Both the position numbers and the translations under genes were made by a program. A stretch of DNA of 64,000 bases from Candidatus Omnitrophota bacterium (lineage in GTDB: Bacteria > Omnitrophota > Gorgyraeia > Duberdicusellales > 4484-171): positions 132,547 to 196,546 of the forward strand of contig PMCS01000029.1 of the NCBI GenBank assembly GCA_003154195.1, read 5' to 3'. Shown here piece after piece: positions 5,637 through 63,804 of this stretch; position 1 is the first letter of the stretch, and each line of letters opens with the position of its first letter. The notes under the pieces were generated by a model. It saw only the letters and a program-made list of their open reading frames with translations, was not told where the DNA came from and did no database searches.

Positions 5637-6197
5637 TTACCGACAGGCATTTTCTGGGCTAACAGCATATGCCATCAATGCCTGACGCGCCCGTTTAAGG
5701 CGGGAACGTACGGTATTGATCGGTATCGATAACGCTTTGGCGATTTCTTCATAACTCAACCCTTCGATTTCCCGCAACATAATCACCGTCCGCTGGTCGG
5801 GATTAAGCCTATCTAGAAGAGGCTTGAGCTTCTCCTGACGATCATGTAATTCTAACTGGGCGGTTTGTGGTTCAACCGAGACTTCCCGAGGTGATACATC
5901 ATCGATATTTACCTGGCGCTTGCGTTCTTTCGCCGTCCGCCGATAATGGTTGATCGCCGTGTTAACCGCGATGCGGTAAACCCAGGTTTTAAAAGAAGCG
6001 CGAAAAGCGAAACTCTTTAAATTACGGTAAATCTTAACGAATACTTCCTGCGTTACGTCCTGGGCGTCATGGCGGTTGTTAGTGACCCGCATTGCCAGGG
6101 TATACACAAACGAGCTGGCTGTCCGGTAAATTTCTTCAAACGCTTCGATGCCGCCGCCTGCCGCTTTTATCAATACATCCCGGCTAATTGTATCCAT
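5637..6197 (-). CDS. ECF (sigma-70 family, sigma-24 type) RNA polymerase sigma factor
   Basis: 186 aa; region 2 (VFVKIYRNL...WVYRIAVN) and region 4 (LSYEEIAKALSIPINTVRSRL) signatures. Confidence 0.85.
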   Translation of the reverse strand: MDTISRDVLIKAAGGGIEAFEEIYRTASSFVYTLAMRVTNNRHDAQDVTQEVFVKIYRNLKSFAFRASFKTWVYRIAVNTAINHYRRTAKERKRQVNIDDVSPREVSVEPQTAQLELHDRQEKLKPLLDRLNPDQRTVIMLREIEGLSYEEIAKALSIPINTVRSRLKRARQALMAYAVSPENACR

Positions 6198-6354
6198 ATC
6201 CTTTTACCGTTCAATATCTTAGACAATATGGTTATTAAAAAAGTTCCTTCCGGCGGCGCGGGATTCCCCTCTTCCACAGCTAAACAGCTCTTTCCTGAAA
6301 AAATGCGCCATGTCTGCTTATCGGCCCGCTTCGCCCGCGAAGCGAGGCGAGCAG

Positions 6355-15707: not shown

Positions 15708-15786
15708 TGGCGGGGACGAAGGGATTTGAACCCTCGGTCACATGCGTGACAGGCATGGGTCTTGAACCGGGCTAGACGACGTCCCC
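15708..15786 (-). tRNA. tRNA-Asp (anticodon GTC), CCA encoded
   Basis: Cloverleaf readable by eye; anticodon loop CTGTCAC; its 3' 17 nt are duplicated at 10763-10779 and 13548-13564. Confidence 0.75.
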
Positions 15787-16049
15787 ATTTTTTCCTGCGG
15801 CTTTGCCGCAGGAAAAAATCTGTCAATCCGTCTTACGACGGATTGAAATAAAATTATAGCTTCAAATATTGTTTAGTCAACTTATCTTGTAAATTAATAA
15901 AGAACAACGTAATATTTATTTTTATGTTTTTCTGCTTCTAAAATCTATTTCGAAATGGCGGAAGGCATTTTCTCCGCAACTTGAAAAATGCGTAACCGTA
16001 TTTTTCAAGTTGCTATATTTTTTTTCGCTCTTAATAGAGCGAAAAAAAA

Positions 16050-16123
16050 TGGGCAATACAGGACTCGAACCTGTGATCCCTTCCATGTCAAGGAAGTGCT
16101 CTAGCCAACTGAGCCAATTGCCC
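16050..16123 (-). tRNA. tRNA-Val (anticodon GAC)
   Basis: GGGCAATTGGCTCAGTTGG...anticodon loop TTGACAT...GGTTCGAGTCC T-arm. Confidence 0.75.
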
Positions 16124-16338
16124 AAATGAGGCTTAGCCGAGTCCAAGTCCGAAGGACGCCGGACGAGGCTGTAGCCGAATTTGCCCGGCAAATGTTCAAA
16201 AATTGTCGAAGAGAATTTTTGAACGGTTTATGAGCCGGGACGAAAGATATGAAAACATGCCTAATATTTCAATGAGGACTTTCCCGCGTTTTTGACGCGG
16301 GAAAATTATACCATTCTTTTTGCCAAAGGCAAAAAGAA

Positions 16339-16423
16339 TGGGCGAGGAGGGAGTCGAACCCACACGTCCCTTACGGGACAGCAGATTTTAAGTCTGCGCT
16401 GTCTGCCATTCCAACACTCGCCC
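16339..16423 (-). tRNA. tRNA-Leu (anticodon TAA), class II with long variable arm
   Basis: Anticodon loop CTTAAAA; variable arm GTCCCGTAAGGGAC; GGTTCGACTCC T-arm. Confidence 0.75.
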
Positions 16424-16806
16424 AATTTTAATTTTTACTTCGTAAAAATTAAAATTGCCGCCCCCTTTTTACTGAACAAGTTCAGTAAAAAGGGGGAAAT
16501 GCATATAAAAGTGAGTAATTTTTCAATTTGTTAAACGATCGACAAGACTTTAAATATTTGCCGATTGTTATCTATTTTGGTTTTTGTTTCTTCTCTTTTC
16601 CCATCCACGAAGTGGATACCACTTTTTATTTCTGCCTATAGGCAGAAATAAAAAGGCGACGAGCGGATTTTTGAGCACCTTAATACATTATATAGCGAAA
16701 TCCCGCCGAGTATTTCAAAAATATCGAAGAGATTTTTGAAATGTTTACGAGACGGGAGAACCGCTCTCCCCCACCTTCCCGGATTCCCTATCCAAATTAC
16801 CAAACG

Positions 16807-16878
16807 AGGCGACGAGCGGATTTGAACCGCTGGATAGCGGTTTTGCAGACCGCTGCCTTACCACTTGGCTACGTCGCC
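16807..16878 (-). tRNA. tRNA-Cys (anticodon GCA)
   Basis: Anticodon loop CTGCAAA; 3' 17 nt duplicated at 16654-16670. Confidence 0.7.
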
Positions 16879-19182: not shown

Positions 19183-20010
19183 TTTTATCCTGCTCAAAAC
19201 CCTCTCCAAATCCGAAAGATTAAAATACTCGATGACAATCTTTCCCCGGTTATTCTTTTTGTGGGAAATTTTTACCTTGGTGCCGAGAATTTTTTGCAGT
19301 CTTTCTTCTACTTCTAAAACATGCGGGTCATTGATTTTTTTCTTCCGGGAAACGCTTCTGACTTTTTTTTCTATTTCCCGCACCGGAAGCGGCCCGGCTA
19401 AAATCTGTTGGAATAATTTCTTCTGCTCTTCCTCGTTCGCCAGACCAAGAATTGCCCTTGCCTGGCTTCGACTGATCAGTCCCCGGCTTAACGCCTTCTT
19501 TATTTCTTCCGGAAGCTTCAGCAGCCGGAGCGTATTGGAAATGGTAGTTTTGTCTTTACTGACAAATTTGGCGACCGTATCCAGGGTAAATTCGAATTCC
19601 TCCATTAATCTTTTAAAAGCCTGCGCTTCCTCGATGGCGTTCAAATCCTTGCGCTGCAAATTTTCTATAATGGCAACCGTTAACGCCTCTTTATCGTCAA
19701 TGTCCTTAATAATAACCGGCACCTGCGTTAATTTTAATAATACCGCCGCTTGATAGCGGCGTTCTCCCGCGATAACTTCATATTTATCCTCGGATGCCTT
19801 GCGCACCACTAAGGGTTGGATAACGCCTTTTTCTTTGATGGACTGAGACAATTCCTCCAAGTCTTTTTCATTGAAATCCTGGCGCGGCTGGTATTTACCG
19901 GGTTGCAGTTTTTCTAAAGACAGGTAAGCAAATTCTCTCGGCGTAGCCGGCAGGGTAGCTTTTTTAGGAATGAGCGCGTCTAGTCCTTTACCCAATACTC
20001 TTTTTTCCAT
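19177..20010 (-). CDS. parB: chromosome partitioning protein ParB/Spo0J
   Basis: GERRYQAAVLL ParB box, KGLDALIP N-terminus, HTH region; start set at MEKRV (ORF-track upstream extension begins at TTG inside a repeat element). Confidence 0.85.
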   Translation of the reverse strand: MEKRVLGKGLDALIPKKATLPATPREFAYLSLEKLQPGKYQPRQDFNEKDLEELSQSIKEKGVIQPLVVRKASEDKYEVIAGERRYQAAVLLKLTQVPVIIKDIDDKEALTVAIIENLQRKDLNAIEEAQAFKRLMEEFEFTLDTVAKFVSKDKTTISNTLRLLKLPEEIKKALSRGLISRSQARAILGLANEEEQKKLFQQILAGPLPVREIEKKVRSVSRKKKINDPHVLEVEERLQKILGTKVKISHKKNNRGKIVIEYFNLSDLERVLSRIKI

Positions 20011-20255
20011 AATTTGGATTGCCTTAGTGAATTCCCACCGACTTTGTCGGTGGTTTAGTATAATAAAACTAAGCCCCGCCGTTTCACGGCGGGCCAAGTT
20101 TTATTACCCGGCGCTAATTTTGGTGTACCGAAATTAGCGCCGGGCTAATTCGACTACCACCTCCCACTTCGCCCCCGCCATCCCATAGATGGCGAGGTCT
20201 CGTCAATTCGTTGAACGAATTGAGGGACTTCGGGCTTGTGTTCGGTGAAGTCTCA

Positions 20256-21023
20256 TTAATTAAGCTTAATCGGTTCTTTTAAAATCTCCTGCGCAAGGTT
20301 TAGATATGCTTTAGCGCCCACGCAATATTGGTCATAAAAATGTATAGGCTGGCCAAAGCTCGGCGCTTCCGCGAGCCGGATATTACGCGGGACAATACTG
20401 TTAAAAGCTTTCTCTTTAAAAAATCCGCGCACTTCCTCTATTACCTGAAGACTCAGGCGGGTTCGGAAATCAGCCATCGTCAGCAAGATTCCTTCAATCT
20501 CCAGATCCGGATTAAAACGCTGACGCACCAACTCTATGGTGTTGACTAATTTGGCAACGCCTTCCAGGGCATAATATTCGCACTGAACCGGAATTACCAG
20601 ACTATCGCAAGCGCACAGGACATTCACAGTCAATAAACCCAGGGACGGCGGCGCGTCAATAATCAGGTAAGAAAAGTTATCTTTTATTTTATCAAGTTCT
20701 CTTTTTAATTGCAACTCTCTATTTTCCACATTAACCAATTCGATTTCCGAACCAGTCAACGCAACCGTGGAAGGCATAAGGGAAAAATGCGGCCACTGGG
20801 TAGGATAAATACTTTCCTGTAGCGTCTTGGTGCCGGCAATCACATCGTAAATAGAATTCTTATCCGTATTGTCAAACCCCACCCCGCTAGTCGCATTGCC
20901 TTGCGGGTCCATATCGATAAGAAGTACTTCTTTACCGCTTAAGGCAAGGTAAGAAGCAATATTAATCGCGGTAGTAGTTTTACCAGTACCCCCTTTTTGG
21001 TTACAAACACCGATAATTTTACC
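20256..21023 (-). CDS. parA: chromosome partitioning ATPase ParA/Soj
   Basis: Deviant Walker A KGGTGKTT; start set at MGKIIGV. Confidence 0.85.
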   Translation of the reverse strand, partial: GKIIGVCNQKGGTGKTTTAINIASYLALSGKEVLLIDMDPQGNATSGVGFDNTDKNSIYDVIAGTKTLQESIYPTQWPHFSLMPSTVALTGSEIELVNVENRELQLKRELDKIKDNFSYLIIDAPPSLGLLTVNVLCACDSLVIPVQCEYYALEGVAKLVNTIELVRQRFNPDLEIEGILLTMADFRTRLSLQVIEEVRGFFKEKAFNSIVPRNIRLAEAPSFGQPIHFYDQYCVGAKAYLNLAQEILKEPIKLN

Positions 21024-21115
21024 CATAACGCAAATCACCAGAAATACTGTCATTAATTCATAACTCATTGTGCCGCAATGAGTTATGAATATTTTAATCC
21101 TCTTCTCTATCCCCT

Positions 21116-21131
21116 GTTTTCACGTGAAAAC
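21116..21131. promoter_or_regulatory. parS-like 16-bp perfect palindrome GTTTTCACGTGAAAAC (copy 1)
   Basis: Resembles canonical parS TGTTNCACGTGAAACA around a CACGTG core; 4 copies between parA and yidC. Confidence 0.55.
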
Positions 21132-21283
21132 GGCTGGCTGGTTAGATTACCTTTCGCACAATCCCACGCACCAATAACCAAACTTTGGGGAAAATAGTTC
21201 ATCCCTTGCATAGTTGGAACAGATTACCGGTTCATTTAATTCTAAACGTAACAAGGCAATGGTTAACCAAATAACTCTGCCCC

Positions 21284-21299
21284 GTTTTCACGTGAAAAC
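21284..21299. promoter_or_regulatory. parS-like palindrome (copy 2)
   Basis: Identical 16-mer. Confidence 0.55.
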
Positions 21300-21356
21300 G
21301 TAATTATAGTTTAATACTTAATTTAGTTTTTGCAAGAAATTTCTGCGCCCTGACCA

Positions 21357-21372
21357 GTTTTCACGTGAAAAC
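21357..21372. promoter_or_regulatory. parS-like palindrome (copy 3)
   Basis: Identical 16-mer. Confidence 0.55.
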
Positions 21373-21526
21373 GGAAGCGGTTCCGCGTACGTCAGGTAAA
21401 TATTTTTCGCACGTTTCAAATAGTGGAAAACCTGTGAAAATTGTGATTTCATGCAAATCGGCAACCTGCAGGTGTGGTTTTCTGGTGCATGAATAAACGG
21501 GAAAAATACATTTCCCGGGTTACCGC

Positions 21527-21542
21527 GTTTTCACGTGAAAAC
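21527..21542. promoter_or_regulatory. parS-like palindrome (copy 4), abutting yidC stop
   Basis: Identical 16-mer. Confidence 0.55.
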
Positions 21543-21543
21543 G

Positions 21544-22980
21544 CTATTTTGACCTGGCAAGATGAATTTGATAGAGGAGAGTCAAAAAATTCTGAATAAA
21601 CCAGTAAAGGGCTAAACTGGAAGGAAAATTATAGAAAATAACCCCGATAAAAACCGAAAAAAACAGCCCCATTCGTCTTTGGTCAACAGAAACCGCAGGG
21701 GAAACGGTAAATCTTTGTTGCACTAAACCCACACCCATTATTAAAAGCGGTATGATATTGATATAATCCACAGGGGGTGGAAACCCGAGCTTGATTGCGT
21801 GATCGGGAAGAGTTAAATCTTTAATCCACAAAAACTTAGCGCCTTTTAACTCGGTAAGACTTAAAAAAACCTGATAAAGCGCAAAAAACAAAGGAAACTG
21901 CAAAAAAACCGGCAAACATCCGCCGATTGGATTTACTCGGTATGTTTTATAAAGTTCCAATATTTCACTATTTAATTTTTGGGGATTATCTTTATACTTC
22001 ACTTTCAATTCTTCAATATGCGGCTGAATTGCTTGCATTTTTTTCATCGCCCGAGTGCTTATATTCGTAAGCGGAAACAGGATGATAAAAATTAAAATTG
22101 CTAAAATTATTATGCCTAACCCCCAACTTTTGGTAAGGTCATGACAAAAAGAGAATAGTTTGACAATAATAACACCAATACCATGAAAAAAACCATAATG
22201 TATAACACTTTGTAAACCAAAGGGTTGCAACGATTTTTGTAGTTGAGGGCCCACATACAAAGTCACTTCGGGCAGAGGAGAAACAAGGAGCAATGAAACA
22301 TTATTTTTGTTATCTTTGGCCCACTGAATATCATATTCGCCTTTAATTAAAGAGGCGCAAAAATATTGGGTCCGGCTGCCGGCAAAATCAACTTTTTCTA
22401 CCAACTTATCTTTTACTTTAGGCAGCGGCATCCGTTCCATCAGCAGGTTTTGAGAATAATAAATTCCTTGATACCTGTGCTGTAACTGGTTGGCGCTCAA
22501 AATGTTATGAAATAAAACCATCGAAGAAAATGGTGAAACCTTGATGGTAATTAAGTTTCCCTCAAAAATAAACTCTTTGCGGATATTATCGGCAGTAAAA
22601 ATAAGACGGTTTTGGTTAATGTTTACGGAAAATTTCTTATCCCGGTCAGCCGGAGTAAAACCGATATCTTTGATCAATAAGTCATCTGTGGGATAAGAAT
22701 TTAATTTTACAAAACTTACGTAACCACCGATGGCAGAATAAGTTATGGTGAAATTGTCCAATTTAAGTTCAGGTAAAGATGCAGTAACTTCTTGAGGAAC
22801 ATTAACGCCGGAAGCAGGAGCGGTAGAGGATTGAACAGCTTGTTGTGGCGTAACAGGTTGCTTTGATTGCTCACCTAACGGGACAGTATTTTTAGGAAAA
22901 TATTTAGCCCCGATATAGGAATAAACAGTTAAAAAAAGAAAACTCACTACAATTGCGGCAATAAATCGTTTGGTATCCAT
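21544..22980 (-). CDS. yidC: membrane protein insertase YidC
   Basis: N-terminal TM, periplasmic domain, C-terminal 5-TM Oxa1 core (MKKMQAIQPHIEELKVKYKDNPQKLN...). Confidence 0.85.
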   Translation of the reverse strand: MDTKRFIAAIVVSFLFLTVYSYIGAKYFPKNTVPLGEQSKQPVTPQQAVQSSTAPASGVNVPQEVTASLPELKLDNFTITYSAIGGYVSFVKLNSYPTDDLLIKDIGFTPADRDKKFSVNINQNRLIFTADNIRKEFIFEGNLITIKVSPFSSMVLFHNILSANQLQHRYQGIYYSQNLLMERMPLPKVKDKLVEKVDFAGSRTQYFCASLIKGEYDIQWAKDNKNNVSLLLVSPLPEVTLYVGPQLQKSLQPFGLQSVIHYGFFHGIGVIIVKLFSFCHDLTKSWGLGIIILAILIFIILFPLTNISTRAMKKMQAIQPHIEELKVKYKDNPQKLNSEILELYKTYRVNPIGGCLPVFLQFPLFFALYQVFLSLTELKGAKFLWIKDLTLPDHAIKLGFPPPVDYINIIPLLIMGVGLVQQRFTVSPAVSVDQRRMGLFFSVFIGVIFYNFPSSLALYWFIQNFLTLLYQIHLARSK

Positions 22981-48952: not shown

Positions 48953-50137
48953 TTGGAAAAAATGGACGGTCAACTAACCAAACTATTACAGGATTTGATA
49001 AGGATTGATTCCCAGAATCCGCCCGGCAACGAAACCGCTATCATCGCTTTTATCAAAAATTACCTTAAAACCCTGGGCCTCGATTGCCGAATTTATGAAT
49101 TCCAAAAAGGCCGGCCCAACCTGGTATGCTGTTTAAAGTCAAAAAACTCCCGCCGGAAACTTTTATTTACGCCCCACATCGACACGGTTCCCGCGACGGG
49201 TCAGTGGCGTTATCCGCCGCTGGCAGGAACGGTTTCCCGGGGCAGGATTTATGGCCGGGGCGCGACCGATTGCAAAAGCAATGCCGCCGTAGCCCTTTAT
49301 TTGATAAAACAATTGAAAGAAAAGAATACGCGGCTGGATAACCTTGATTTAGTTTTCGCTTTTTGCGCTGACGAAGAGACCGGCAGCCATTACGGCACGA
49401 TACCGCTGATGAAAAAATTGCGGGATATCGATTACGGGGTTGTTCTCGATGCCGACGAATTCGATATTGTCATCGCGCAAAAAGGGTTGTTGCACCTGCG
49501 CGTTGAGCTCCGGGGGAAGGAAGCTCACGGCGCTTACCCGGAGCGCGGGGTCAATGCCGTGGAAAAAGGCGTACGTATTTTAAACGAAATTCTGGCGAAA
49601 AAATTTACCCCGTTAGAGAAAAATACTGCTAAAGAACATAATTCTCTAACGGGGTTTATCTATAAACCGCATCCCATTTTGATTAAGCCTACTTTAAACG
49701 TGGGAAGGTTTTGCGGCGGGGACAAGGTAAATATCGTGGCCGGTTACGCTTTTTTCGAATTAGATATCCGCTGGCTCCCTTCGATGGACCGAGACAAGAT
49801 AATCCGGGGCATCGAGTCGATCATAAAAAAACAGAAAATACCTTATAAAATAAAAATTTTATCGGCTCAGCCGCCGGCGGAAGTAAATAGAGATAATATT
49901 GCCCTGAAAGTTTTGGCCGCTACGCTTGCCGCGCACGGGATCAAGCCTCAACTCAAAGCCAGTTTCGGAGCGACGGTGATTAATTTTGTTCAAGCCGCCG
50001 GCGCCGCCGCCTTTGCCTTCGGTTTCGGCACCAAAAACTGCGCCCATACTAAAAATGAGTATGTGGAAATAAAGAATCTGCAGAAAGGTGTAGATATTCT
50101 GGAAGATTACGTAAGGCGGTTAGATGAAAAAGTTTAA
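48953..50137 (+). CDS. M20 family metallopeptidase (ArgE/DapE-like)
   Basis: HIDTVP...GRGATDCK...EETG metal-ligand motifs. Confidence 0.8.
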   Translation: MEKMDGQLTKLLQDLIRIDSQNPPGNETAIIAFIKNYLKTLGLDCRIYEFQKGRPNLVCCLKSKNSRRKLLFTPHIDTVPATGQWRYPPLAGTVSRGRIYGRGATDCKSNAAVALYLIKQLKEKNTRLDNLDLVFAFCADEETGSHYGTIPLMKKLRDIDYGVVLDADEFDIVIAQKGLLHLRVELRGKEAHGAYPERGVNAVEKGVRILNEILAKKFTPLEKNTAKEHNSLTGFIYKPHPILIKPTLNVGRFCGGDKVNIVAGYAFFELDIRWLPSMDRDKIIRGIESIIKKQKIPYKIKILSAQPPAEVNRDNIALKVLAATLAAHGIKPQLKASFGATVINFVQAAGAAAFAFGFGTKNCAHTKNEYVEIKNLQKGVDILEDYVRRLDEKV

Positions 50138-50294
50138 AGTTTGGGCAATAGGCAATGATGGTATAATATAAGATATTTTTACCACAGAGGGCACAGAGAA
50201 TACAGAGGAAAATATTTAAAAGTAATATTTTGCTTTTACTCTGTGCGCTCCGTGTTCTCTGTGGTGAGATTTTTTTCTAGCTGTGGAGCGTCTG

Positions 50295-51110
50295 ATGAAA
50301 TTGCTAAACGCCAGAGTCAAGAAAATAGAAAAAATAAAACATGACGTCTTTCTCCTATCGTTTCATTGCCCTGCGATAGCAAAAATCGCCCAGCCGGGGC
50401 AATTCCTGCATATTAAAGTCCGGGGGCCGACGATTCTGCGCCGGCCTTTAAGTATCCACTCGGTGAAGGGAAACGATATTTACCTCCTGTTTCGTGTCCG
50501 TGGCAGAGGCACCCTCGCTCTTTCGCGCTATAAAAGCGGTGATGAATTAGATATTCTTGGCCCTCTCGGCCAAGGGTTCACTATTCGTCCCACGGCCCAC
50601 GGCCCACGGCCCACGGCAAGTATTTTAGTCGCCGGAGGGATGGGGGCGGCTCCGCTTGTTTTTTTAGCTGTTCAGCTAAAAAAACAGTCCATGGTCCACG
50701 GTCCACGGTCCACAGGAAAAAAACCGAAAAACATAGTTTTGCTGGGGGCGAAGACAAAAAGCGAGTTGTTGTGCGAGAAAGAGTTTAAAAAGCTGGGGTT
50801 TGAGGTAAAAATCGCCACCGAAGACGGTTCTCTCGGCACCCAAGGTACAGTTGTTGATGTTCTTAACAATTATCTTTCTACTTTCTACTCGCTACTCTCT
50901 ACTTTCGTATACGCTTGTGGCCCCAACGCGATGTTGTTCGAAATCAGCAAAATTCTGGAAAAACACCCCCAAACCACCGGTCAAGTTTCGTTTGAGCAAT
51001 TTATGGGCTGCGGCATCGGCATCTGCTGCGGCTGTACGATTAACACCAAAAACGGTTTCAAAAAAGCCTGCAAAGACGGTCCGGTGTTTGATATTAGAGA
51101 TGTTTGGTAA
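50295..51110 (+). CDS. pyrK: dihydroorotate dehydrogenase electron-transfer subunit-like FAD/NAD(P)-binding protein with C-terminal 2Fe-2S cysteines
   Basis: RPLSI FAD-binding, GGMGAAPL NAD-binding, CGIGICCGC cluster motif; contains two in-frame CCACGG heptamer tandem tracts. Confidence 0.7.
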   Translation: MKLLNARVKKIEKIKHDVFLLSFHCPAIAKIAQPGQFLHIKVRGPTILRRPLSIHSVKGNDIYLLFRVRGRGTLALSRYKSGDELDILGPLGQGFTIRPTAHGPRPTASILVAGGMGAAPLVFLAVQLKKQSMVHGPRSTGKKPKNIVLLGAKTKSELLCEKEFKKLGFEVKIATEDGSLGTQGTVVDVLNNYLSTFYSLLSTFVYACGPNAMLFEISKILEKHPQTTGQVSFEQFMGCGIGICCGCTINTKNGFKKACKDGPVFDIRDVW

Positions 51111-51190
51111 GTTACCAAATGATTTTACTTTTTATTTGACAAATAAATTGACTTATGGTATATATTAAATAGGAGGCAAAAGCAGAGATT

Positions 51191-51472
51191 ATGATTACTG
51201 TCCAACAAAATACCACATTGATTGGCGTGTCGGAATTACGCACCAAGATGGAGCAATTATTAAAAAAACTGCCGGGGACAAAGGTAGTCATCGAAAAACG
51301 GCATAAACCCATAGCTATTCTTATGTCTAATGAAGAATACGAAAAGACTGAACAGCTTTTAGAAATGGCCGAAGATATTGTCCTGGGCTATTTGGCCAAA
51401 TCCCGCTACGAGAATACCAAGGAAAAAGAATACATAGATATCGAAGAAGTCCTGAAGAAATTGGGACATTAA
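51191..51472 (+). CDS. Phd/YefM family antitoxin
   Basis: 93 aa; Phd/YefM fold pattern; immediately upstream of RelE-like gene. Confidence 0.7.
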   Translation: MITVQQNTTLIGVSELRTKMEQLLKKLPGTKVVIEKRHKPIAILMSNEEYEKTEQLLEMAEDIVLGYLAKSRYENTKEKEYIDIEEVLKKLGH

Positions 51473-51477
51473 CCCCG

Positions 51478-51780
51478 ATGTGGCAGGTAAAAATACACTC
51501 CCTTGTTTTAGAAGAAGATTTTAGAAAAATCAACCACCACGATCAAGCCCTCATTTTAAAGACTATTTACAAAAAATTAAGCTTATCGCCCCAGGAATAC
51601 GGCGAAAAATTAAAATATGGCTTAAAAGGCTACTGGAAATTGAAAATATCCCATTATCGGGTGATTTATCGAATAGAAAACGATAAAATTTTGGTTTTAG
51701 TCCTTAAAATAGACCTGCGCCGCGACCAAGAAGTTTACCGGGAAATGCTGAGCCACCTGAATAGACCGCAGTCAATATAG
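51478..51780 (+). CDS. RelE/ParE family toxin
   Basis: LKGYWKLKISHYRVIYRIENDKILVLVLKI matches the RelE/StbE core. Confidence 0.75.
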   Translation: MWQVKIHSLVLEEDFRKINHHDQALILKTIYKKLSLSPQEYGEKLKYGLKGYWKLKISHYRVIYRIENDKILVLVLKIDLRRDQEVYREMLSHLNRPQSI

Positions 51781-52194: not shown

Positions 52195-55100
52195 ATGCTG
52201 ACAAAATTTTCTCCTCCACACCGCGACTTGTTTTTTAAGAGCCTGATATTTTTTCTCGCCTTGGTTTTTTTCACGACCAGCCTGGGCGTCCAATACATCA
52301 TGCCCGGCGCTTACGCGTCCAATCTGATTTTACCCCGGCCCAATCAATTAATCAACACGACGCCTTCGTTCGATCTGCCGTTTTTGCGCGGCTTAAAGAT
52401 TTATCCCGACGAGCCGTTTAAATTCGATTTCATCCTCGATGAGGGCAACGCCGCTTATAACAACAAAGATTTAAAAACCCAATCGAATAGCCTGATTAAA
52501 TATTTTTTAGCCAGCCTTACTATTCCCGAATCCGATTTCTGGGTGAACCTTTCGCCTTACGAAGGCGACCGCATCGCGCCGGAAGAATTGAGCCGGACTG
52601 ATCTCGGCCAGGATTTGCTGGCGCAGGATTATCTCCTCAAACAATTGGTCGCTTCGCTTACCTATCCTGATTCGCCGCTGGGAAAACAATTCTGGTCCAA
52701 GGTATACCAGCGCGCCTACGAGCTGTTCGGAACGACTAAAATCCCGCTCAACACGTTTAATAAAATCTGGATTGTGCCGGATAAAGTCACGATTTACGAG
52801 GATGAGGGCAAAGCAATCATCGGCGACGCGAAATTAAAAGTGATGCTGGAAGAGGATTATCTTTCCTTGAAAGAAAATATTTCCAACCCCCAATTCAAGA
52901 CCGATACCATCGCTAACGATAAAGCCGAAGATATCAACTCGTTTTCTTCCCGGATTATGAAAGAAGTGGTGGTGCCGGTGATTGAAAACGAAGTCAATAC
53001 CGGCAAGAACTTCGCTCCGTTAAGGCAGGTCTATTACTCGCTGATTCTGGCTACCTGGTTTAAACTAAAATTGAAGCAGACGGTTGTGGCGCAGATTTAC
53101 GCCGATAAGAAAAAAACCAACAGCGTTAACAGCGACGACCCGGCAATGAAAGAAAAAATCTACCGCCGGTATTTAGAAGCATTCCAGAAAGGGATTTATA
53201 ACTACGTCAAGCGGGATTTGGATTTAGGCACCAAGCGCTATGTCCGGCGCCGCTATTTCAGCGGCGGAGCGGATATGAGAACGGCGACCGCGACGGTTTC
53301 TTCCGGTTTGGTACCATTCGCCAAGATTATTTCTTCGCCGGCGGCTACGGCGGCGTCTAATGGCCACCTGAGAAGTGTGGAGACGGAATTAAAGGCCGGC
53401 ACTATTGGCAATCCGATTGAGAATACGGCGCCTAAACCTCTTTCTCGAAAACCCAATAATATTTTGGAACGAAGCTTTGTGGTGTTGAAAAATCTGAGAT
53501 TCAGCCAGCTCGCCGGGGATAATCATAAAGTAAAACGTCTTTTTTCCCAGGTTCGGCTGGCCGGAAACATCTTAATCGATACGGAGCATAAATTATTTCC
53601 CCATCAGAATACGGCAGAGTTTAAAAATGCGGTGTTCAAAAATTTGCTCGACCAGAATTGGGCCGCGCTGCACAACCAAAGCCCGGGGCGGGCGCTTTTG
53701 GCTAACCCCCTCTTTGTCGCCGCAATGGCCTACTGTGCTTACACCCTCGACGATGCCGCCGGTAATAGAGAATACCAGAATAAACTTGACCGATACCTAT
53801 CGGTCTTAAACTTAGGTCCCCGCCAAATCGAAGCGATAAAAACAACCGCGCGTAATCAAGTAGTCAAAGCAGAGCAAGAACGAGTTAAAAAAACGATAGG
53901 GCAAGGGCGGCTTTCGCTGCCTGCTAAACCAGCAAATAGTAAGGGAGAAATGCGTGTCGCTGTTGGTTCGTCCGCCTTATCTAAAGCTCCCGTCTCCGCC
54001 TCGCCGCTGCCGTCCATAGTTGACTCCAAGCCGTCGCTATTTAAGCGGGTCGCCGATGCAATTGTCGCGGCTGCCCCTCCCAAGGTGACGGGCCGGGCGT
54101 GGGAAAGTTCCGGTACGGCTAATCTCGCTGTAGCGGTTGACGGCTATACAATCCAGGCCAGGGTTGACGTAGATAATAAAACCGGTGAACCTTTAGTCTC
54201 GGCCGGCCGGATACATGATATCGCCAAGGAAGTGCTTTATATGACCAGTACGGATTCCCAAGCCATTTCCGCCGGAGCCCTTCCCGCGACAATTACCATA
54301 AGAGTAGCACCAGTAAAAGACAGTATTTTCCCGGTTCAGCATACACCCGGGGTGATTACGATTAACCGGGCAATCGTAGAGCGGATTCGCAACCCCCGTT
54401 TGCGCGAAATATTTATCGAGGCCAGCATATTCCACGGTTTGTCCCGGGAATTAGGGGTAGATGCCCAAACCCTGGCGCGAACAGATGCCGCTTGTTTAAT
54501 AGGATTGGCCAAGTCCCAACACGAATCGAGCGAGGTTAATATTTCCCGGGCCGAGCTGGAAACGAATTTACGCCGCATCAGCCGGATTAATAAAAGCGCG
54601 GCGGCTGATGCGCTTTTATTCAGCGCGCTAAAAGGTTATCCCGTAAATACAATTGATATGGACCCAAAAATGGGGCCGGGAAGCATGGCCGATTATCAAA
54701 AGGCGCTAAGGGGACACGCCGCTAATTTTAGAAGCTTGCTGCGCACTGGACAGAGCGCAGATAAAAGCGCAAAAATTAATGAGGCTTTAAAAAGATTTGG
54801 GGAATTTTGCCGGCTGAAAGAATTATGGTCTCGTAACTCTTTTAGCCCTGAAGAGGCCACATTGGTAGAGGCGGTTGAACAAGAGCGTCAAAAAGCATGG
54901 AAAGCAATCGAGAAAGAGTTTAACGACCAGGGCTATCATGTTTATGGTAAATTTATGGATTCGGGGAGAAAAGAAGATAGGCTTTTTGTTCTTCAGCATA
55001 TCGAAGAAAGAAGGGCTTTGCCGGAAGACTTTGGCCGTCAGGAAGTCTGGTTTGTCCGGCAGGAAACTGAGTTGCCCGGAGGCCGGGTCCCCGGCGGCGC

Positions 55101-58100
55101 GGGGTTTACCGAATTATTTTCCGGCGACGGAAGTGCCATCAGGGTTGACCGCAGCAGCATTGAACGAACCGATGATCAGCTAATTGCGCCGTATCGTGAA
55201 ACGCGAGGAGCACATGTTTCCGAGGTTGATGACAGGTTAGGCGCTTTTGCCGTTTCCTATGGGCAATTAGCGCACGTTTACGCCCAGACCGGCCAGGTTC
55301 AGCGTTTACAAGACCAGGAAGAGGAAGTATTTTTTCGTGAAGCGCTGCAGTCTATTTTGGAACGCGGTATCGGTAAAGATAATCTAGACAAACTGCGAGG
55401 AAAAAACCTGAGGGATGGCGAGGATGATTTTAAACGGCTGCAGCGCCTGGGAGAAAAATTGGTACATTTAGCGACAATGGAAAAATCCGGCAATCCCCTT
55501 GCGGTTTTTTTGGCGGAGATACGCCGAGGTTTTGACCAGAGGATAATCATAGATGACAATGGGGAGATAGACCGCGTCCCCAGCGAAGCAATCCTGACCG
55601 CTTTGGCGCAACAAGCATCTGGGCAAGATAGCGTGGCCGGCACCGAAGCCGGCAAAACAATGTGTCGTGATTGGTTTTCTTTTTTGGCGGAATCGCAATC
55701 TTCGCAAGAAGAATATAATCATCGGCTGACTAGCCTTATCACACAAGAGCTTGGACAGGTACGCCAAGCCTTTATCGCGGAATGTAGTAAGCATGATTTT
55801 TCCTCGAGATGGGAAATCGTTTTTGACCAGTTTATGGCAACCCCCACGGCAAATTTGCTTAACGTTGCCTCATCCGCCTTAACTAAAGCTCCTGCCGTTG
55901 CCTCACCAGTGCGCGCGTGGTTAACTAAGCGGTCTGCTTCGGTCAGAGCGAAGCTTACTTCCTTTGGAGTCCGGCTCGGCGATACGCGGGATTCATTAAG
56001 CCGGCGGCTCGCTCCGTTCAGGCTCAGGCTCGGCGCCGCGCGGGATTCGGCGAGCCGGCGGATTACTTCGTTTCGAGCCCGGCTTGCTTCCCTGAGGACT
56101 TCCCTGAAAAGCGGGTTCGTCAGCGCGCGGGATTATGCAAGCAACCGGGTTACTTCCGCAAGCAACAAATTGACCGGTCTAACACTTAGAGCTTACATCG
56201 CGCAGGATTCAACGCGCCGGCAGATTAATGCGTTTGGAGAAAGGGTTGCTTCCCGGTCCCGGGCAAAGTTCGTTTCCCTTGGAAAAAGGCTTGCTTCCCG
56301 ATCTCGGGAAAAATTCACTTCTCTTAGGTTAAAGATTCAAGGTGAGCCTGCCGCGCAAGGTAATCCAAGACGACTTAAACAACTCCAAGCTTTAAGCATG
56401 TGGAGCCTGAATACAGCTGTACATGCTGCCGCCAAAAAAGCAGAATTTGACCCGGACGAACAATTACCCATTGCCATGGGGGTTTTTTTCATTGGGTGGG
56501 TTTTAACACATCCCGAGCAGGCTTTAAAAACGTTGTTCTCTAAAAGAATAGAGCCGGGCACCGCGCGGGATTCCGTGAGCGGACGGGTTGCTTCCATCAG
56601 GGAAACATTGGCTTCTCTAAAAGCTGGAATCGGATCATTGTTTAGTCTAATCCTTGTGGATATGGGGTCGGCCATTGTTGGCAATCCAACCAGAGCAGGG
56701 GTAAATAATGACGTAGGTGCACCAGTAGGCGAACTGAGCATGCTTGCCGCAGAGACTTCCAGCGAGGTTTCTTCCGCGGTGGTGGAGGCCAAAGGGTTAG
56801 AATCTACCCCGATATTTGGAACTAATAATGTCGCTGTCATCGCCTCGCCGGTTTTGGCTTCTTCCGCGGCCGGGGAAGTCAGGGAAATAGAAATTAAAAC
56901 TTTATTTTCTCCTAATACCAGTGATGGCACAGCCGCTTTATCATTAGAAAATATAGCTGATATGTGGAAGAGAGAGTCTCAGAGAGGTTTACCACTGAGA
57001 TTCCGTTTAAACGGGGCAAGCCTGATGGGAAATACCACGGAATTATTATTAACCCGCGCCAAGCAGGCGTCCCAGAGGAAAGAGTTACGGCCCTTGGTCA
57101 GGATTATTTTAAGAGTGGCAGCGCGGAAAGACCCACAATTATTATTATTCCGCGCTATTCAAGCGCATAATGAGAAGTCCGATCCTTTCGCAAGGCTGAT
57201 TCTGGAAGCGGTGGCGCAGGAAGACAAAGGATTATTGTTATCACGCGCTATTCAGGCTCATGACGAAAAAACCGATCCTTTAGCCAGGCTGATCTTGGAA
57301 GTGGCAGCGCAGAAGGACCCGCAATTATTGCTTACCCGCGCCAAAGACGCATCCCGGGATGGTTTTTTCCCTTTGGCGATACTTATTCTTGAGGTGTTAA
57401 AGGACAAAAACCAGGATGAACCAGATTATCCTTATCACGCGGCTTACGCGTATTGGCATCGAGACGCCCCAAGTGGTCGCATAGAAAAAATAGATTTTCT
57501 CCAAAACGCGCAGAAAAATTTCAGAATCGCCGGGAGACTTTACAGGAAACTTTATGAGAGTGAGAGGTCAGGTAAGAATGAGCACAAGGTTCAATTGGGT
57601 CATTGCGCGGGAGAATTTAAAAATATACAAAAAGATATAGACAGAATTAAAAGCCAGTTGATGGAAAGTGAGTCTGAAGAATCTGAACAATGGGTGATGA
57701 TGAAAGATGCTTACGAAGATTTAATTTGGACGGAGAATATCAGTAAGGAACATACGCCGGGTAGAGTTGTTAGTGAAGCAATGGTGGGCCAGCTTCAAGA
57801 TCTTTTGGCAGCGTTGGATCGTTCGACATTACAACCAGTTATTATCGCGTTCGCGGCAACCTTTAATTTATTACCCGAAAATGCTAGTGATGGTACCCAA
57901 ATGTTTGACGAAAAACATATAAAAGCCATAGAAGATTCAATCGCAGACCCTAAGTCGAGTTGGGAAACGCTTAGTAGAAAATACCAAGTGGGTGGTTTAT
58001 CTACGAGGCATAATGGCGTCGCCGAAGAAGCTTTTGAAAGAATAAAAGAAACGATTGTTAAGGCTAGAAAATCCGCTTTGAGTATAGAATCCGGGGCATT

Positions 58101-59619
58101 GCAAGATGATGGCGAAGCCCTTTTAAGCGGCAGCTTCGGCAGAGATAATGGGGCTGGCAGCCTGGATTCCGCGATTGACGATTTGTTTGGTTCCGGCGGA
58201 ATTTTTGGCGGCGATGAAGCAATAACTCCCGCGCAGGAACCCGATTCCCTTGTTGTCCTTCCTCTTGCCGACGGCCAAACATCTTCGAACGCGGCGAATC
58301 ACCGGGAAATAATGCTGACGTGGGAGAAACAACGCAGGCAAGCCTCCGCTTCGCCGGCTTTGGCCTCGTCCACCGCCTTGCCGGTAGAAAGTATTGTCGA
58401 TTCTTTAAAGCGTATATTCGTGAATGGACACGCCGCGATACACGGGGAAAATATAGGCCAATCGTTGGCCTCTGCTTTCAGGGCTTCTCTCGACGCCGCC
58501 ACATTTAATAGCTTTGTACCAATGGCGGTGGCGTGGGGTACGTCTTTTATTGCCTCCTTGGTATCAGTAAGACAACAACGCAGATTTGATTCTTGGGTAT
58601 CTGAAATAGAACGAAGCAGAGAAGCGGTAAGCAATGTCCCCGATGTTGGGCATGAGTTAAGCCTGGATGATATCACAATTATCGGCGGTCATTCTACTTC
58701 TGAAAGCACCAGTGTGGAACAAGGCGTCGCCGCCTCGCCGGCGCCGGTAATGCATTTATTTGAAAATTCTTCAATAAAAGTCGAATTGGAAATATCCGCC
58801 GGGAATGTTGATGTATTGCAAGGACTTGCCGAGGCTGTTTCTATCGGATATAAGGAGGCATTATTTAGAGAAAACGGCGGCTTGATTGTCGGCCGCCTTG
58901 AAGGCAATGTGTATACTGTTACCGGGTTAATTCCTCTTGTCCGTTCGATAAGGACCGACGCTTCTATCACGTTCGATAAAGAAGAGATTAGAGAAAGGAT
59001 CGAAGGCTTGCTCCCGAATGTAATGGTATTGGGGTTGTACCATAACCATGGTTATCATCGTTCTTTTTCTGCTAACTATAAGCCTGGCCCCAGCCAAGAC
59101 GATGCCATTATCGATGATTTGAACATTGAAGAATTAAAACATCGGATTGTTGCTAATCGATTAGGTTTAATCGTGGAAGCAGCCCCGCAGTTATCATTCG
59201 AGGCTTTAGTGGCAAGCGAAGGTGAGCCAGTGAAGCCGTCGATGAGCGATGTAGGAGTATACGGTTATATTACTCCTAATCGTGGTGAAGATGGCAAGAT
59301 AAGACAACCAATTAATGAAAATGGCGTACCCATCGATGCAATAAACCGATTTTTCGCGGATAATAGAAAAAAGCCGGGAACCGTTTCTTCTCCCTCGGGT
59401 ATTAAAACCCCCGGCGGTATCGATTTGGGCGGGGATAAGATGAAAATGCAGATAATCGACCAAAGACCAAAGACCGTAGACCAAAGACAAGAAATACAGG
59501 GGGCGGCGAGCGCCATGGCGATAAAAGGATTGCCGTTTGATATCAACAAATTCGAGGGGTTTACTTTTAATATCATCAAGATCGAGAAGGTGAAAAGTCT
59601 GGCGGCGATGCTTAAGTGA
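52195..59619 (+). CDS. giant (2474 aa) secreted/surface repeat-containing protein, function unknown
   Basis: Uninterrupted 7.4-kb ORF; N-terminal signal peptide/TM; Arg/Ser amphipathic ~19-aa repeats (aa ~1250-1390); three ~38-aa LLLxRAIQAHxEKxDPxARLILE repeats (aa ~1620-1730); higher GC than surroundings; only short antisense ORFs inside. Confidence 0.7.
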   Translation: MLTKFSPPHRDLFFKSLIFFLALVFFTTSLGVQYIMPGAYASNLILPRPNQLINTTPSFDLPFLRGLKIYPDEPFKFDFILDEGNAAYNNKDLKTQSNSLIKYFLASLTIPESDFWVNLSPYEGDRIAPEELSRTDLGQDLLAQDYLLKQLVASLTYPDSPLGKQFWSKVYQRAYELFGTTKIPLNTFNKIWIVPDKVTIYEDEGKAIIGDAKLKVMLEEDYLSLKENISNPQFKTDTIANDKAEDINSFSSRIMKEVVVPVIENEVNTGKNFAPLRQVYYSLILATWFKLKLKQTVVAQIYADKKKTNSVNSDDPAMKEKIYRRYLEAFQKGIYNYVKRDLDLGTKRYVRRRYFSGGADMRTATATVSSGLVPFAKIISSPAATAASNGHLRSVETELKAGTIGNPIENTAPKPLSRKPNNILERSFVVLKNLRFSQLAGDNHKVKRLFSQVRLAGNILIDTEHKLFPHQNTAEFKNAVFKNLLDQNWAALHNQSPGRALLANPLFVAAMAYCAYTLDDAAGNREYQNKLDRYLSVLNLGPRQIEAIKTTARNQVVKAEQERVKKTIGQGRLSLPAKPANSKGEMRVAVGSSALSKAPVSASPLPSIVDSKPSLFKRVADAIVAAAPPKVTGRAWESSGTANLAVAVDGYTIQARVDVDNKTGEPLVSAGRIHDIAKEVLYMTSTDSQAISAGALPATITIRVAPVKDSIFPVQHTPGVITINRAIVERIRNPRLREIFIEASIFHGLSRELGVDAQTLARTDAACLIGLAKSQHESSEVNISRAELETNLRRISRINKSAAADALLFSALKGYPVNTIDMDPKMGPGSMADYQKALRGHAANFRSLLRTGQSADKSAKINEALKRFGEFCRLKELWSRNSFSPEEATLVEAVEQERQKAWKAIEKEFNDQGYHVYGKFMDSGRKEDRLFVLQHIEERRALPEDFGRQEVWFVRQETELPGGRVPGGAGFTELFSGDGSAIRVDRSSIERTDDQLIAPYRETRGAHVSEVDDRLGAFAVSYGQLAHVYAQTGQVQRLQDQEEEVFFREALQSILERGIGKDNLDKLRGKNLRDGEDDFKRLQRLGEKLVHLATMEKSGNPLAVFLAEIRRGFDQRIIIDDNGEIDRVPSEAILTALAQQASGQDSVAGTEAGKTMCRDWFSFLAESQSSQEEYNHRLTSLITQELGQVRQAFIAECSKHDFSSRWEIVFDQFMATPTANLLNVASSALTKAPAVASPVRAWLTKRSASVRAKLTSFGVRLGDTRDSLSRRLAPFRLRLGAARDSASRRITSFRARLASLRTSLKSGFVSARDYASNRVTSASNKLTGLTLRAYIAQDSTRRQINAFGERVASRSRAKFVSLGKRLASRSREKFTSLRLKIQGEPAAQGNPRRLKQLQALSMWSLNTAVHAAAKKAEFDPDEQLPIAMGVFFIGWVLTHPEQALKTLFSKRIEPGTARDSVSGRVASIRETLASLKAGIGSLFSLILVDMGSAIVGNPTRAGVNNDVGAPVGELSMLAAETSSEVSSAVVEAKGLESTPIFGTNNVAVIASPVLASSAAGEVREIEIKTLFSPNTSDGTAALSLENIADMWKRESQRGLPLRFRLNGASLMGNTTELLLTRAKQASQRKELRPLVRIILRVAARKDPQLLLFRAIQAHNEKSDPFARLILEAVAQEDKGLLLSRAIQAHDEKTDPLARLILEVAAQKDPQLLLTRAKDASRDGFFPLAILILEVLKDKNQDEPDYPYHAAYAYWHRDAPSGRIEKIDFLQNAQKNFRIAGRLYRKLYESERSGKNEHKVQLGHCAGEFKNIQKDIDRIKSQLMESESEESEQWVMMKDAYEDLIWTENISKEHTPGRVVSEAMVGQLQDLLAALDRSTLQPVIIAFAATFNLLPENASDGTQMFDEKHIKAIEDSIADPKSSWETLSRKYQVGGLSTRHNGVAEEAFERIKETIVKARKSALSIESGALQDDGEALLSGSFGRDNGAGSLDSAIDDLFGSGGIFGGDEAITPAQEPDSLVVLPLADGQTSSNAANHREIMLTWEKQRRQASASPALASSTALPVESIVDSLKRIFVNGHAAIHGENIGQSLASAFRASLDAATFNSFVPMAVAWGTSFIASLVSVRQQRRFDSWVSEIERSREAVSNVPDVGHELSLDDITIIGGHSTSESTSVEQGVAASPAPVMHLFENSSIKVELEISAGNVDVLQGLAEAVSIGYKEALFRENGGLIVGRLEGNVYTVTGLIPLVRSIRTDASITFDKEEIRERIEGLLPNVMVLGLYHNHGYHRSFSANYKPGPSQDDAIIDDLNIEELKHRIVANRLGLIVEAAPQLSFEALVASEGEPVKPSMSDVGVYGYITPNRGEDGKIRQPINENGVPIDAINRFFADNRKKPGTVSSPSGIKTPGGIDLGGDKMKMQIIDQRPKTVDQRQEIQGAASAMAIKGLPFDINKFEGFTFNIIKIEKVKSLAAMLK

Positions 59620-63722: not shown

Positions 63723-63804
63723 TGCGCGGGGTGGGAATCGAACCCACACGGGTTACCCCATGCGCCCCTCAAACGCATGCGTCTGCCAGTTCCGCCACTC
63801 GCGC
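63723..63804 (-). tRNA. tRNA-Leu (anticodon GAG), class II
   Basis: D-arm GCGG/CGC, anticodon stem TGCGT/GCGCA with loop TTGAGGG, long variable arm GGGGTAACCC, T-arm GGGTTCGATTCCC; one A-C mismatch in acceptor; 5' 18 nt duplicated at 63923-63940. Confidence 0.65.

Follow-up and report, generated by a model that had tools for sequence, protein, structure and literature searches.

Recurrent in-frame heptanucleotide arrays in the pyrK gene of Candidatus Omnitrophota

The pyrK-family gene described here is located in a 64,000-nucleotide (nt) stretch of a Candidatus Omnitrophota contig (PMCS01000029.1), hereafter the window, and carries three tandem tracts with a period of 7 nt, all of which are in frame within the open reading frame (ORF) 50283/50295-51110. 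Each of these tracts adds about seven amino acids (aa) to a loop of the NAD-binding domain. Similar arrays are found in pyrK across Omnitrophota, a distribution that suggests repeated insertion specific to this gene in the lineage and not an on/off switch. The explanation that we favour, and of which we are about half convinced, is that the arrays are micro-expansions of native proto-repeats, generated by slippage or template switching, filtered for reading frame and fixed in permissive loops, and that such expansions have occurred repeatedly in the dihydroorotate dehydrogenase (DHOD) genes of Omnitrophota.

Judging from its sequence, the product of the ORF is a PyrK-family protein. It matches the Pfam families DHODB_Fe-S_bind (PF10418, 9.8e-14), NAD_binding_1 (PF00175) and FAD_binding_6 (PF00970), and comprises a FAD-binding barrel, a NAD-binding Rossmann domain and a C-terminal 2Fe-2S domain. 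The closest PDB structure is the PyrK of Lactococcus lactis (1ep3_B, E = 4e-31, over residues 16-269), and the C-x4-C-x2-C...C cysteine motif of PyrK is readable in GCGIGICCGC...KKAC. The ORF starts with the GTG at 50283; database gene calls use the ATG at 50295, which gives 271 aa. The nearest named homologs are all from Candidatus Omnitrophota/Omnitrophica, the next-closest PyrK being 58% identical, with intermediate relatives absent from the databases searched.

An initial annotation of the window had described two heptanucleotide tracts in pyrK. Both are real: they are present in the sequence, they are detected by Tandem Repeats Finder (TRF) and they lie far beyond chance (Table 1). They are also, as described, in frame and translated into HGPR, although the coordinates given were one base off, and in tract 2, which had been read as three units plus one, only two of the four units are perfect, the others being variants. 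The gene contains a further period-7 tract, the third, which had been overlooked. Tracts 1 and 2 are the only perfect repeats in the window with a period of at least 7 and at least three copies, and 30 first-order Markov shuffles contain on average 0.0 such repeats.

Table 1 Positions of the pyrK gene, its three heptanucleotide tracts and the adjoining palindrome in the window
Feature	Position	Strand	Description
pyrK-family gene	50283..51110	+	ORF listing, Pfam and PDB match
Tract 1 (site 1)	50586..50617	+	TRF 50589-50617: period 7, CCCACGG x4.1, 100% matches
Perfect 14-bp palindrome, 2-nt loop	50657..50686		TGTTTTTTTAGCTG-TT-CAGCTAAAAAAACA, 100% complementary
Tract 2 (site 2)	50687..50714	+	GTCCATG GTCCACG GTCCACG GTCCACA; TRF 50687-50713, 3.9 copies, 95%
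Tract 3 (site 3)	50874..50906	+	TRF: degraded CTTTCTA x4.7, 84% matches; separate repeat search agrees

Tract 1, which reaches back to its first position when one mismatch is allowed, reads CGT, CCCACGG x4 and C. Its translation, RPTAHGPRPTA, is part of the linker that joins the FAD domain to the NAD domain and is located just ahead of the ILVAGG strand. The tract corresponds to the native CGTCCCACGGC plus 21 nt, and removal of 21 nt leaves TIRPTASILVAGG, which matches the loop length of insert-free orthologs. Tract 2 encodes SMVHGPRST, past the first Rossmann helix and upstream of the IVLLGA strand, and tract 3 encodes LSTFYSLLSTF, just ahead of the VYACGP strand. The units of tracts 1 and 2 are one base apart and both peptides contain H-G-P-R. 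No CCACGG-type unit is found in the window outside pyrK, and a template in trans or dispersed CCACGG copies were accordingly discarded as the source within these 64 kb. Runs of A7 are present on both sides of tract 2 (50680-50686; 50717-50733), the upstream one belonging to the palindrome. The downstream stretch GGAAAAAAACCGAAAAAC (KKPKN, 50717-50733) resembles a decayed, older site-2 array of the AAAACCG/CGAAACC type, which is intact in the orthologs P0026 and P0087.

Alignment bears out the proposal that the tracts insert residues into the NAD-binding half of the protein. All of them fall at gaps relative to the L. lactis PyrK (3 aa, 9+2 aa and 1+4 aa at sites 1, 2 and 3, respectively), and tracts 1 and 2 also match gaps relative to array-free Omnitrophota orthologs, which are shorter at these sites; P0008, for example, reads DINRT--TNILVAGG and LNA--IRNTVLLG. 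At tract 3, the segment exceeds that of the more distant relatives L027, L034 and L041 by 7 aa. In an AlphaFold (AF2) model built from 32 sequences, with a mean predicted local distance difference test (pLDDT) score of 79.9, each tract is directly followed by a beta-strand and falls in coil of low confidence or at the end of a helix. Site 1 is modelled as a coil (92-107, pLDDT about 65) followed by strand E108-114 (ILVAGG), site 2 as the end of helix 118-134 with a coil (131-144, pLDDT 64) followed by strand E145-152 (IVLLGA), and site 3 as the end of helix 186-196 with a coil (pLDDT about 78) followed by strand E203-208 (VYACGP). The pLDDT is lowered at sites 1 and 2. Rossmann topology would put all three sites on one edge of the sheet, across from the C-terminal edge that binds the cofactor.

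Arrays of this kind are unexpected in a pyrimidine-biosynthesis gene, as the initial annotation remarked; they are not peculiar to this genome, however, and mark pyrK across the lineage. Peptides of at least 9 aa were compared with all stop-free heptamers read in three frames. Among 120 orthologs that are 50-58% identical to the query, 36 contain an exact heptamer-array peptide, and 60 do so when up to one mismatch per 10 aa is accepted; among 150 independent representatives of clusters at 50% identity, the numbers are 6 and 14. The array peptides of the 120 orthologs cluster at residues 90-110, 120-145 and 170-215, and peptides with a 7-aa period are observed at all three sites of the alignment, for example PQSTVHSPQ, which is (CCACAGT)n, TDYRLQTTD, which is (ACAGACT)n, LSTIDYRLST, which is (CTATCGA)n, and PTSNVQRPTSNVQRPTS. 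Site 3 carries arrays in many orthologs, LSTIDYRLST and LRNTKYEIRNT among them.

At the DNA level, in GTDB genomes and metagenomes, the perfect arrays are mostly 26-35 nt long (about 4.1-5.0 copies) and are found at offsets of about 300, 390-420 and 550-590 nt in pyrK, with a few at about 705-820 nt. Their units are unrelated between genomes (TCGGTCA, GACCACG, AACTCTC, AATTCGA, GAAATCC and ACGATAC, for instance). The modal copy number is about 4.4-4.7 in the relatives, and copy numbers are 3.9-4.7 in the window. Array length equals a native 8-14 nt plus 21 nt, rarely plus 42 nt (site 1 of L122 and P0042); the rare longer arrays have 7.9 copies in the former and at least 7 in the latter. An octamer array of 4.4 copies in L030 again represents three units gained. 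About half of the 120 orthologs are devoid of a recognisable array, and array-bearing genomes are often insert-free at one site or more. Turnover is visible in a clade of 72-88% identity: some members have the site-1 array and others are without it, their lengths differing by 7 aa, and the units at site 3 differ.

The arrays are specific both to the gene and to the period. Perfect arrays of at least 2.6 copies were counted in 26 Omnitrophota-like loci, in 22.9 kb of pyrK and 333 kb of flanks. Arrays with a period of 7 were found 25 times in pyrK and never in the flanks, and those with a period of 8 twice and never, respectively. Periods 4 (1 in pyrK, 25 in the flanks), 5 (2 and 7) and 6 (0 and 3) are not enriched in pyrK. 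The chance that all 25 arrays would fall in pyrK, which makes up 6.4% of the 355.6 kb, is about 0.064^25, a figure that is overstated since orthologous arrays are not fully independent; the enrichment itself is not in doubt. In 886 kb of pyrK loci from outside Omnitrophota, no period-7 array of at least 24 nt was found.

The flanks contain a few imperfect period-7 arrays, and the three that were checked are intergenic. Exceptions to this location are known in coding sequence. A fourth coding heptamer array of the window, GACCAAA x4.4 (59458-59488, 83% matches), is read as DQRPKTVDQR near the C-terminus of a 2474-aa ORF, so the process is not strictly limited to pyrK. The other exceptions are arrays in pyrD, which encode SPVTCHLSPV in L100/L101 (L100 6800-6830) and LSALSSQLSA in L104 (3818-3844); in these two unrelated contigs they occupy one shared site, a few residues past the NISCPN active-site motif. 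Most Omnitrophota pyrD genes have no arrays. Inverted heptamer arrays were also encountered outside pyrK: in L022 (7453-7508), (AGAAACC)3.6 is directly followed by its complement (GGTTTCT)4.4, and the two would form a hairpin, and in L015 a distance of 6.1 kb separates GTTTAGA x4.7 from its reverse complement (34-66 and 6196-6228).

The lengths and sequences of the arrays give indications on their origin. Perfect lengths of 31-33 nt correspond to 21 nt plus 10-12 nt, which suggests that native matches of 3-5 nt spaced by 7 nt could have been the substrate of slippage. The conserved motif E-I-R-N of site 2, which is also present in array-free orthologs, is encoded by GAAATCCGAAAT, which amounts to 1.7 heptamer copies, and R-N-T-I at site 3 is encoded by CGAAATACGAT, a similar proto-repeat. 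The array EIRNPKSEIRN, which is (GAAATCC)4.7, is found at site 2 in P0039, L014, L098 and L093, whose proteins are only about 60% identical, and its recurrence can be explained by the E-I-R-N motif itself encoding a heptamer proto-repeat. Similarly, EGRRTKDEGR is common to P0036 and P0092, and SPQSTVHSPQ to P0007 and P0110.

In addition, units are shared between the sites of one gene. The initial annotation had taken the same motif at two sites as a hint of templating, and this view gains support from the comparison of different-site pairs: 5 of the 22 pairs within one gene share a unit (at most one base apart), as against 2.7% between genes (binomial 2.5e-4; permutation P = 0.0006), P0246 being an additional case. 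At sites 1 and 2, the window pyrK has CACGGCC and CACGGTC, L176 (P0007) has CCACAGT and CCACAGA, P0246 has CTATCCG at both, and L100 has GCTACAC and GCTCCAC, with related and inverted copies at site 3. Sites 1 and 3 carry an identical 35-nt stretch in L022 and the units CGAAATT and CGAAATA in L026, and sites 3 and 4 of L020 both carry GCCGTAC. In L104, the units of pyrD, AGCTCTC, and of pyrK site 1, AGCTATC, differ by a single base, which suggests that sharing may extend to a second gene. Most different-site pairs are unrelated, so copying between sites would be occasional and not the rule. Site 1 of L104 also contains, between repeated units, a GC-rich palindrome, GCCTGCCGGCAGGC (2498-2511, read ACRQAG). 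The peptide ACRQAG is present at site 1 of the divergent P0014 as well and recalls tiny palindromic mobile inserts; GCCTGCCGGCAGGC was not found as a dispersed family in the loci compared.

The palindrome of Table 1 lies within the codons for LVFLAVQLKKQ and its 3' foot abuts tract 2. Folded as DNA, it reaches -16 kcal/mol (z = -3.3). Perfect stems of 10-14 bp are present at the equivalent place, in one register, in L013, L014, L020, L093, L098, L178 and L179, and the hairpins of L097 and of the window are in a register one codon downstream. In nine genomes, the site-2 array starts at the 3' foot of the hairpin; in L097, the array has decayed. On 14 aligned sequences, 82.7% of the stem cells are paired, a value reached by none of 500 shuffles, and four compensatory pairs give a covariation score of 0.263, compared with 0.209 +- 0.016 for shuffles, one of 500 of which reaches it. 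Shifting the register of the hairpin destroys the pairing signal. As the sequences are related, the covariation is supportive rather than conclusive. A palindrome of another kind occurs in L115 (10560-10619), where 60 nt, perfectly palindromic with 27-bp arms, are inserted in frame at site 3 and read LFHCVSGNPVPLTQWNRVY; the pyrK loops consequently accept another template-switch-type product as well.

These observations are combined in the explanation that we favour. A native heptanucleotide proto-repeat, with its 3-5-nt match at 7-nt spacing, would gain three units, i.e., 21 nt or 7 aa, in a loop immediately N-terminal to a beta-strand of the Rossmann-type NAD domain. Such period-7 arrays would arise at a few sites of pyrK, and occasionally of pyrD, through slippage during replication or through template switching, and only gains of 3n units would survive, as other gains break the frame. 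The added loop residues would be nearly neutral, and the arrays would later decay by point mutation or become lost or replaced. At site 2, the conserved perfect hairpin could stall the polymerase and permit repeated cycles of slipping and recopying. Some arrays, including the twin HGPR tracts, appear to have been seeded by a unit copied from another array in the same gene.

Several points weigh against this explanation. Stepwise growth from one to four units would pass through two null alleles, so that a gain of 21 nt in one event would probably have to be supposed. The 7-nt unit is unaccounted for, since units of 4, 5, 10 or 11 nt would be rescued equally by tripling, as is the excess in pyrK, which is about two orders of magnitude over some 300 neighbouring genes. 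Microhomologies spaced by 7 nt occur everywhere, and pyrK exceeds even non-coding DNA in arrays. The many perfect arrays in lineages whose proteins are just 55-60% identical would require a high birth rate or a homogenising or selective force. With regard to the hairpin, none was found beside the site-1 or site-3 arrays, where it was looked for, and the site-2 arrays of L016, L100, L104, L122 and L176 have no hairpin. Finally, the evidence of stability for this species comes from essentially one clone, with 0-2 single-nucleotide polymorphisms per 10-20 kb.

Two further causes of the arrays were considered and rejected. G-quadruplexes do not offer a general cause: only tract 1 has four GGG runs (antisense), and the units of most relatives are not G-rich. 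Seven residues make about two helical turns, and preservation of helix phase was considered as the reason for the period of 7; site 1 is a coil, however, and units of 4 and 11 nt, which would fit as well, are not enriched, so that this reason is not supported.

We see a slim chance that a dedicated mechanism is at work. In one version, the hairpin and the array would together form a nucleic-acid element within pyrK, an mRNA or DNA structure that senses the pyrimidine supply or pauses polymerases; in the other, a lineage-specific templated-insertion activity, a 'stutterer' resembling a primase, a reverse transcriptase or a repair polymerase, would write the arrays with a ruler of about 7 nt. 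Such a mechanism is favoured by the compensatory changes of the hairpin, some of which pair a non-synonymous with a synonymous substitution, and by the start of the arrays exactly at its 3' foot in nine genomes. Also in its favour are the strict period of 7, rarely 8, and the unit families common to the sites of one gene, including those of L100 and perhaps of pyrK site 1 and pyrD in L104; heptamer repeats of other bacteria prefer four units too (PMC4692102). Nevertheless, the hairpins occur in two registers and are absent from many array-bearing genes, and self-correcting palindromes would explain them equally well. As a known RNA family, the hairpin was discarded: Rfam finds only tRNAs in the window and no match in pyrK. 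The units vary by genome, so a sequence-specific binder is not implied, and no conserved neighbouring gene goes with the arrays. The frame and a stop-free reading are always kept, so the arrays must be translated. A slim yet appreciable chance is what we assign to the proposition that Omnitrophota carry out site-directed micro-insertion, by hairpin-stalled stuttering or by copying with a ruler of about 7 nt, which would place 21-nt triplets in DHOD loops in single events, or that the hairpin and the array are a functional element in cis. Either of them, if true, would be a previously undescribed repeated remodelling of a housekeeping enzyme.

The initial annotation had called the tracts phase-variation-like, and the comparison of alleles does not support this suggestion: there are just four units per tract, the length is constant and no frame-shifted pyrK was seen. 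At about 50 Omnitrophota-like loci, every pyrK ORF examined is uninterrupted and close to full length, and the 120 listed orthologs are all complete. The identical 271-aa protein (P0001) is present on 19 contigs, all three tracts are 100% identical in 10 loci that come from several metagenome samples, and the tract length is the same in 12 nearly clonal assemblies, with 0-2 mismatches over up to 20.8 kb. In 11 clusters at 90% identity, which have about 30 members altogether, the arrays show no variants of +-7 aa, and neither arrays of two or three units nor null alleles were seen among the pyrK loci examined. A scan of a collection of metagenome contigs, with exact flanks and variable gaps across both tracts, returned nothing, as that collection lacks the organism, and it speaks neither for nor against length variation. 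Two candidate frame-shifted alleles were rejected, P0131 being a short gene call with DNA identical to the intact allele and P0123 being cut by contig ends at tract 2. Among conspecific contigs, the only real indel is a 31-nt deletion between short direct repeats in parE of L010 (~1475); in L007, what looks like a 30-nt indel of the antitoxin gene is a scaffold gap, written as a run of N. The contigs L011 (1-30) and L012 (1-45), both short and from other samples, start at most 15 nt from the start of tract 2, in the A7 run and palindrome, which may be coincidence or low coverage, or may reflect heterogeneity of the assembly graph.

Thus, the tracts have the anatomy of slippage tracts and, in the clusters and loci compared and in the nearly clonal assemblies, show none of the behaviour that would mark a contingency locus; phase variation of the pyrK tracts is not supported. 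We give little credence to a contingency locus in which gain or loss of a single unit would switch pyrK and let a host-dependent nanobacterium shut off de novo pyrimidine synthesis, with frequent +-1 excursions homogenising the arrays and selection restoring the frame. Simple arithmetic speaks for it, as a 7-nt unit shifts the frame, and so does the fact that the tracts are conserved while their units are not, as is typical of contingency loci. It would also fit the perfect arrays of many divergent lineages and their specificity to DHOD genes, the A7 runs beside tract 2 and, if they reflect assembly-graph heterogeneity, the two contig starts; furthermore, stepwise growth through OFF states needs a gene that is dispensable at times. 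On the other hand, the complete lack of OFF alleles and of length variants in the sets described above, together with a copy number that is almost always about 4.x and not broadly spread, is at odds with the benchmark neuO, which shows 3-53 repeats and 65.6% OFF alleles (PMC13001214), and four units are few compared with the 13-38 units of heptanucleotide tracts in Haemophilus influenzae (PMC2651432).

It is improbable, in our view, that the arrays act as a 'tuning knob' at the protein level, that is, that lengthening of three NAD-domain loops by about seven residues is favoured, e.g., for contact with a partner or a membrane, with heptamer tripling as the readiest route to longer loops. All sites precede parallel strands of one sheet and would thus be on the same edge, the density of arrays in pyrK is above that of the non-coding flanks, which indicates more than mere tolerance, and pyrK is often located beside a gene for a TauE-like membrane protein. 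The repeat number of NeuO is reported to tune its activity, according to a statement cited in PMC13001214. However, the inserted peptides have no sequence in common (HGPRPTA, EIRNPKS, LSTLNSQ and YTLHATR), about half of the orthologs are array-free and array-bearing genomes often lack the insert at some sites. Moreover, selection on loop length would not maintain a perfect DNA repeat, and other ways of adding 7 aa are not seen at a comparable frequency.

A sequencing or assembly artefact, for which only the general difficulty of assembling repeats can be invoked, is effectively refuted and has next to no probability, as the same sequence is found in 10-12 contigs from different samples and assemblers, the frame is kept, dozens of unrelated assemblies show such arrays and repeats of 28-33 nt are well inside the read length.

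With regard to the genomic context, pyrK is not adjacent to pyrD in the window, its neighbours being genes for an M20 peptidase and a Phd/ParE pair (48953-51780). The toxin-antitoxin pair, Phd/YefM-ParE, is directly 3' of pyrK (51191-51780). In the closest clade (loci L093 and L176-L179), pyrK is also found without pyrD, beside pabBC-like, TauE or glycosyltransferase genes, and more distant relatives exhibit the gene orders pyrK-pyrD or pyrK-tauE-pyrD. We assume that the PyrK of the window serves DHOD with PyrD as its partner. The giant 2474-aa ORF (52195-59619) has no Pfam match in the gene tables and contains a 93-nt tandem repeat (x2.5, 57114-57341) of 31-aa, RLILEVAAQKDPQLLL-like units. 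Four tRNA genes are clustered on the minus strand at 15711-16878, and eight perfect hairpins with stems of 10-17 bp are interspersed among them; further tRNA genes are located at 31639, with hairpins on both sides, and at 63723, with hairpins ahead, these hairpins being perfect too. The GC skew is negative from 1 to 20 kb and positive from 22 kb, with a cumulative minimum near 21 kb, and a replication origin may be situated at this minimum (~20000-22000), some 30 kb upstream of pyrK.

Tandem repeats with a unit length other than 3n are commonly taken for phase-variation switches, if they are not set aside as noise. In the pyrK of Omnitrophota, a frame-breaking unit occurs only as frame-restoring triplets, beside a palindrome that maintains itself. 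If three units are added at once, this would be a new mutational mechanism for loop insertions in proteins, and it might bear on the over-representation of heptamers among bacterial repeats; if growth is stepwise, pyrK would be intermittently dispensable in these putatively host-dependent nanobacteria. In either case, the arrays offer a marker, readable from sequence alone and testable, for the rates of birth and death of in-frame insertions, and they call for caution, as contingency loci should not be annotated from tract anatomy alone.

Several known systems resemble the pyrK arrays in part. Quasi-palindrome or template-switch mutagenesis, with palindrome-associated duplications and deletions, is said to have been described by Ripley in 1982, Glickman and Ripley in 1984 and Dutra and Lovett in 2006. 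Its points in common with pyrK are a palindrome whose perfection is preserved by paired changes, a duplication that ends at a hairpin foot and the copying of short sequence from nearby templates. In contrast, it has been described as rare events in laboratory reporters, without a fixed 7-nt unit, whereas the events in pyrK are recurrent and lineage-wide. The small dispersed repeats (SDRs) of Nostoc, reportedly described by Elhai et al. in 2008 as very small mobile repeats of 21-27 nt associated with heptamer repeats and small palindromes, are likewise insertions of ~21-27 nt that are able to sit in frame in conserved genes. However, SDRs are near-identical dispersed copies, whereas the pyrK inserts are tandem local copies for which no dispersed family was detected.

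The contingency loci of Haemophilus and Neisseria that consist of simple sequence repeats (SSRs) also have a tract of non-3n units inside an ORF, with slipped-strand mispairing as the presumed generator. The heptanucleotide tracts proposed to be phase-variable in H. influenzae are strain-variable and located in or near genes for surface proteins and iron receptors (PMC2651432). The pyrK tracts are neither long nor strain-variable, nor are they in such genes. Families of heptamers are known as the short tandemly repeated repetitive (STRR) sequences of cyanobacteria, GGGAATC in Xanthomonas, GGGGA(C/T)T in Nostoc and TAACTGA in Beggiatoaceae (PMC4692102; PMC4679880). A marked preference for four units has been reported for the heptamers of Xanthomonas and Nostoc, and heptamers are over-represented among bacterial SSRs (PMC4692102). 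The pyrK arrays have in common with these families the period of 7 and, at lengths of mostly 26-36 nt, about four units, the latter of which could be explained by the reading frame alone. Such dispersed families lie mainly between genes, with an under-representation in coding regions (PMC4692102; PMC4679880), and each consists of one unit genome-wide, whereas the pyrK arrays have locus-specific units, are nearly confined to one gene and are translated.

The closest comparison is with neuO, the O-acetyltransferase gene of the CUS-3 prophage in Escherichia coli K1, for which the repeat numbers and OFF alleles given above were obtained from 64 genomes (PMC13001214). In both cases, a 7-nt unit is part of the coding sequence, the full-length product is obtained at one modulo-3 class and three units equal seven residues (PMC13001214). 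neuO is a surface-modification gene that carries one fixed unit, AAGACTC, at its 5' end, with measurable minority lengths within a culture, whereas pyrK has about four copies, no OFF alleles or length variants, genome-specific units and three internal loops in a housekeeping flavoprotein. Full-text searches of the literature returned no gene-specific heptamer triplets of variable unit in a housekeeping gene, nor such repeats in Omnitrophota. The pyrK arrays are thus best described as coding tandem repeats of the slippage kind in a new form, with a modest chance that a new mechanism is behind them.

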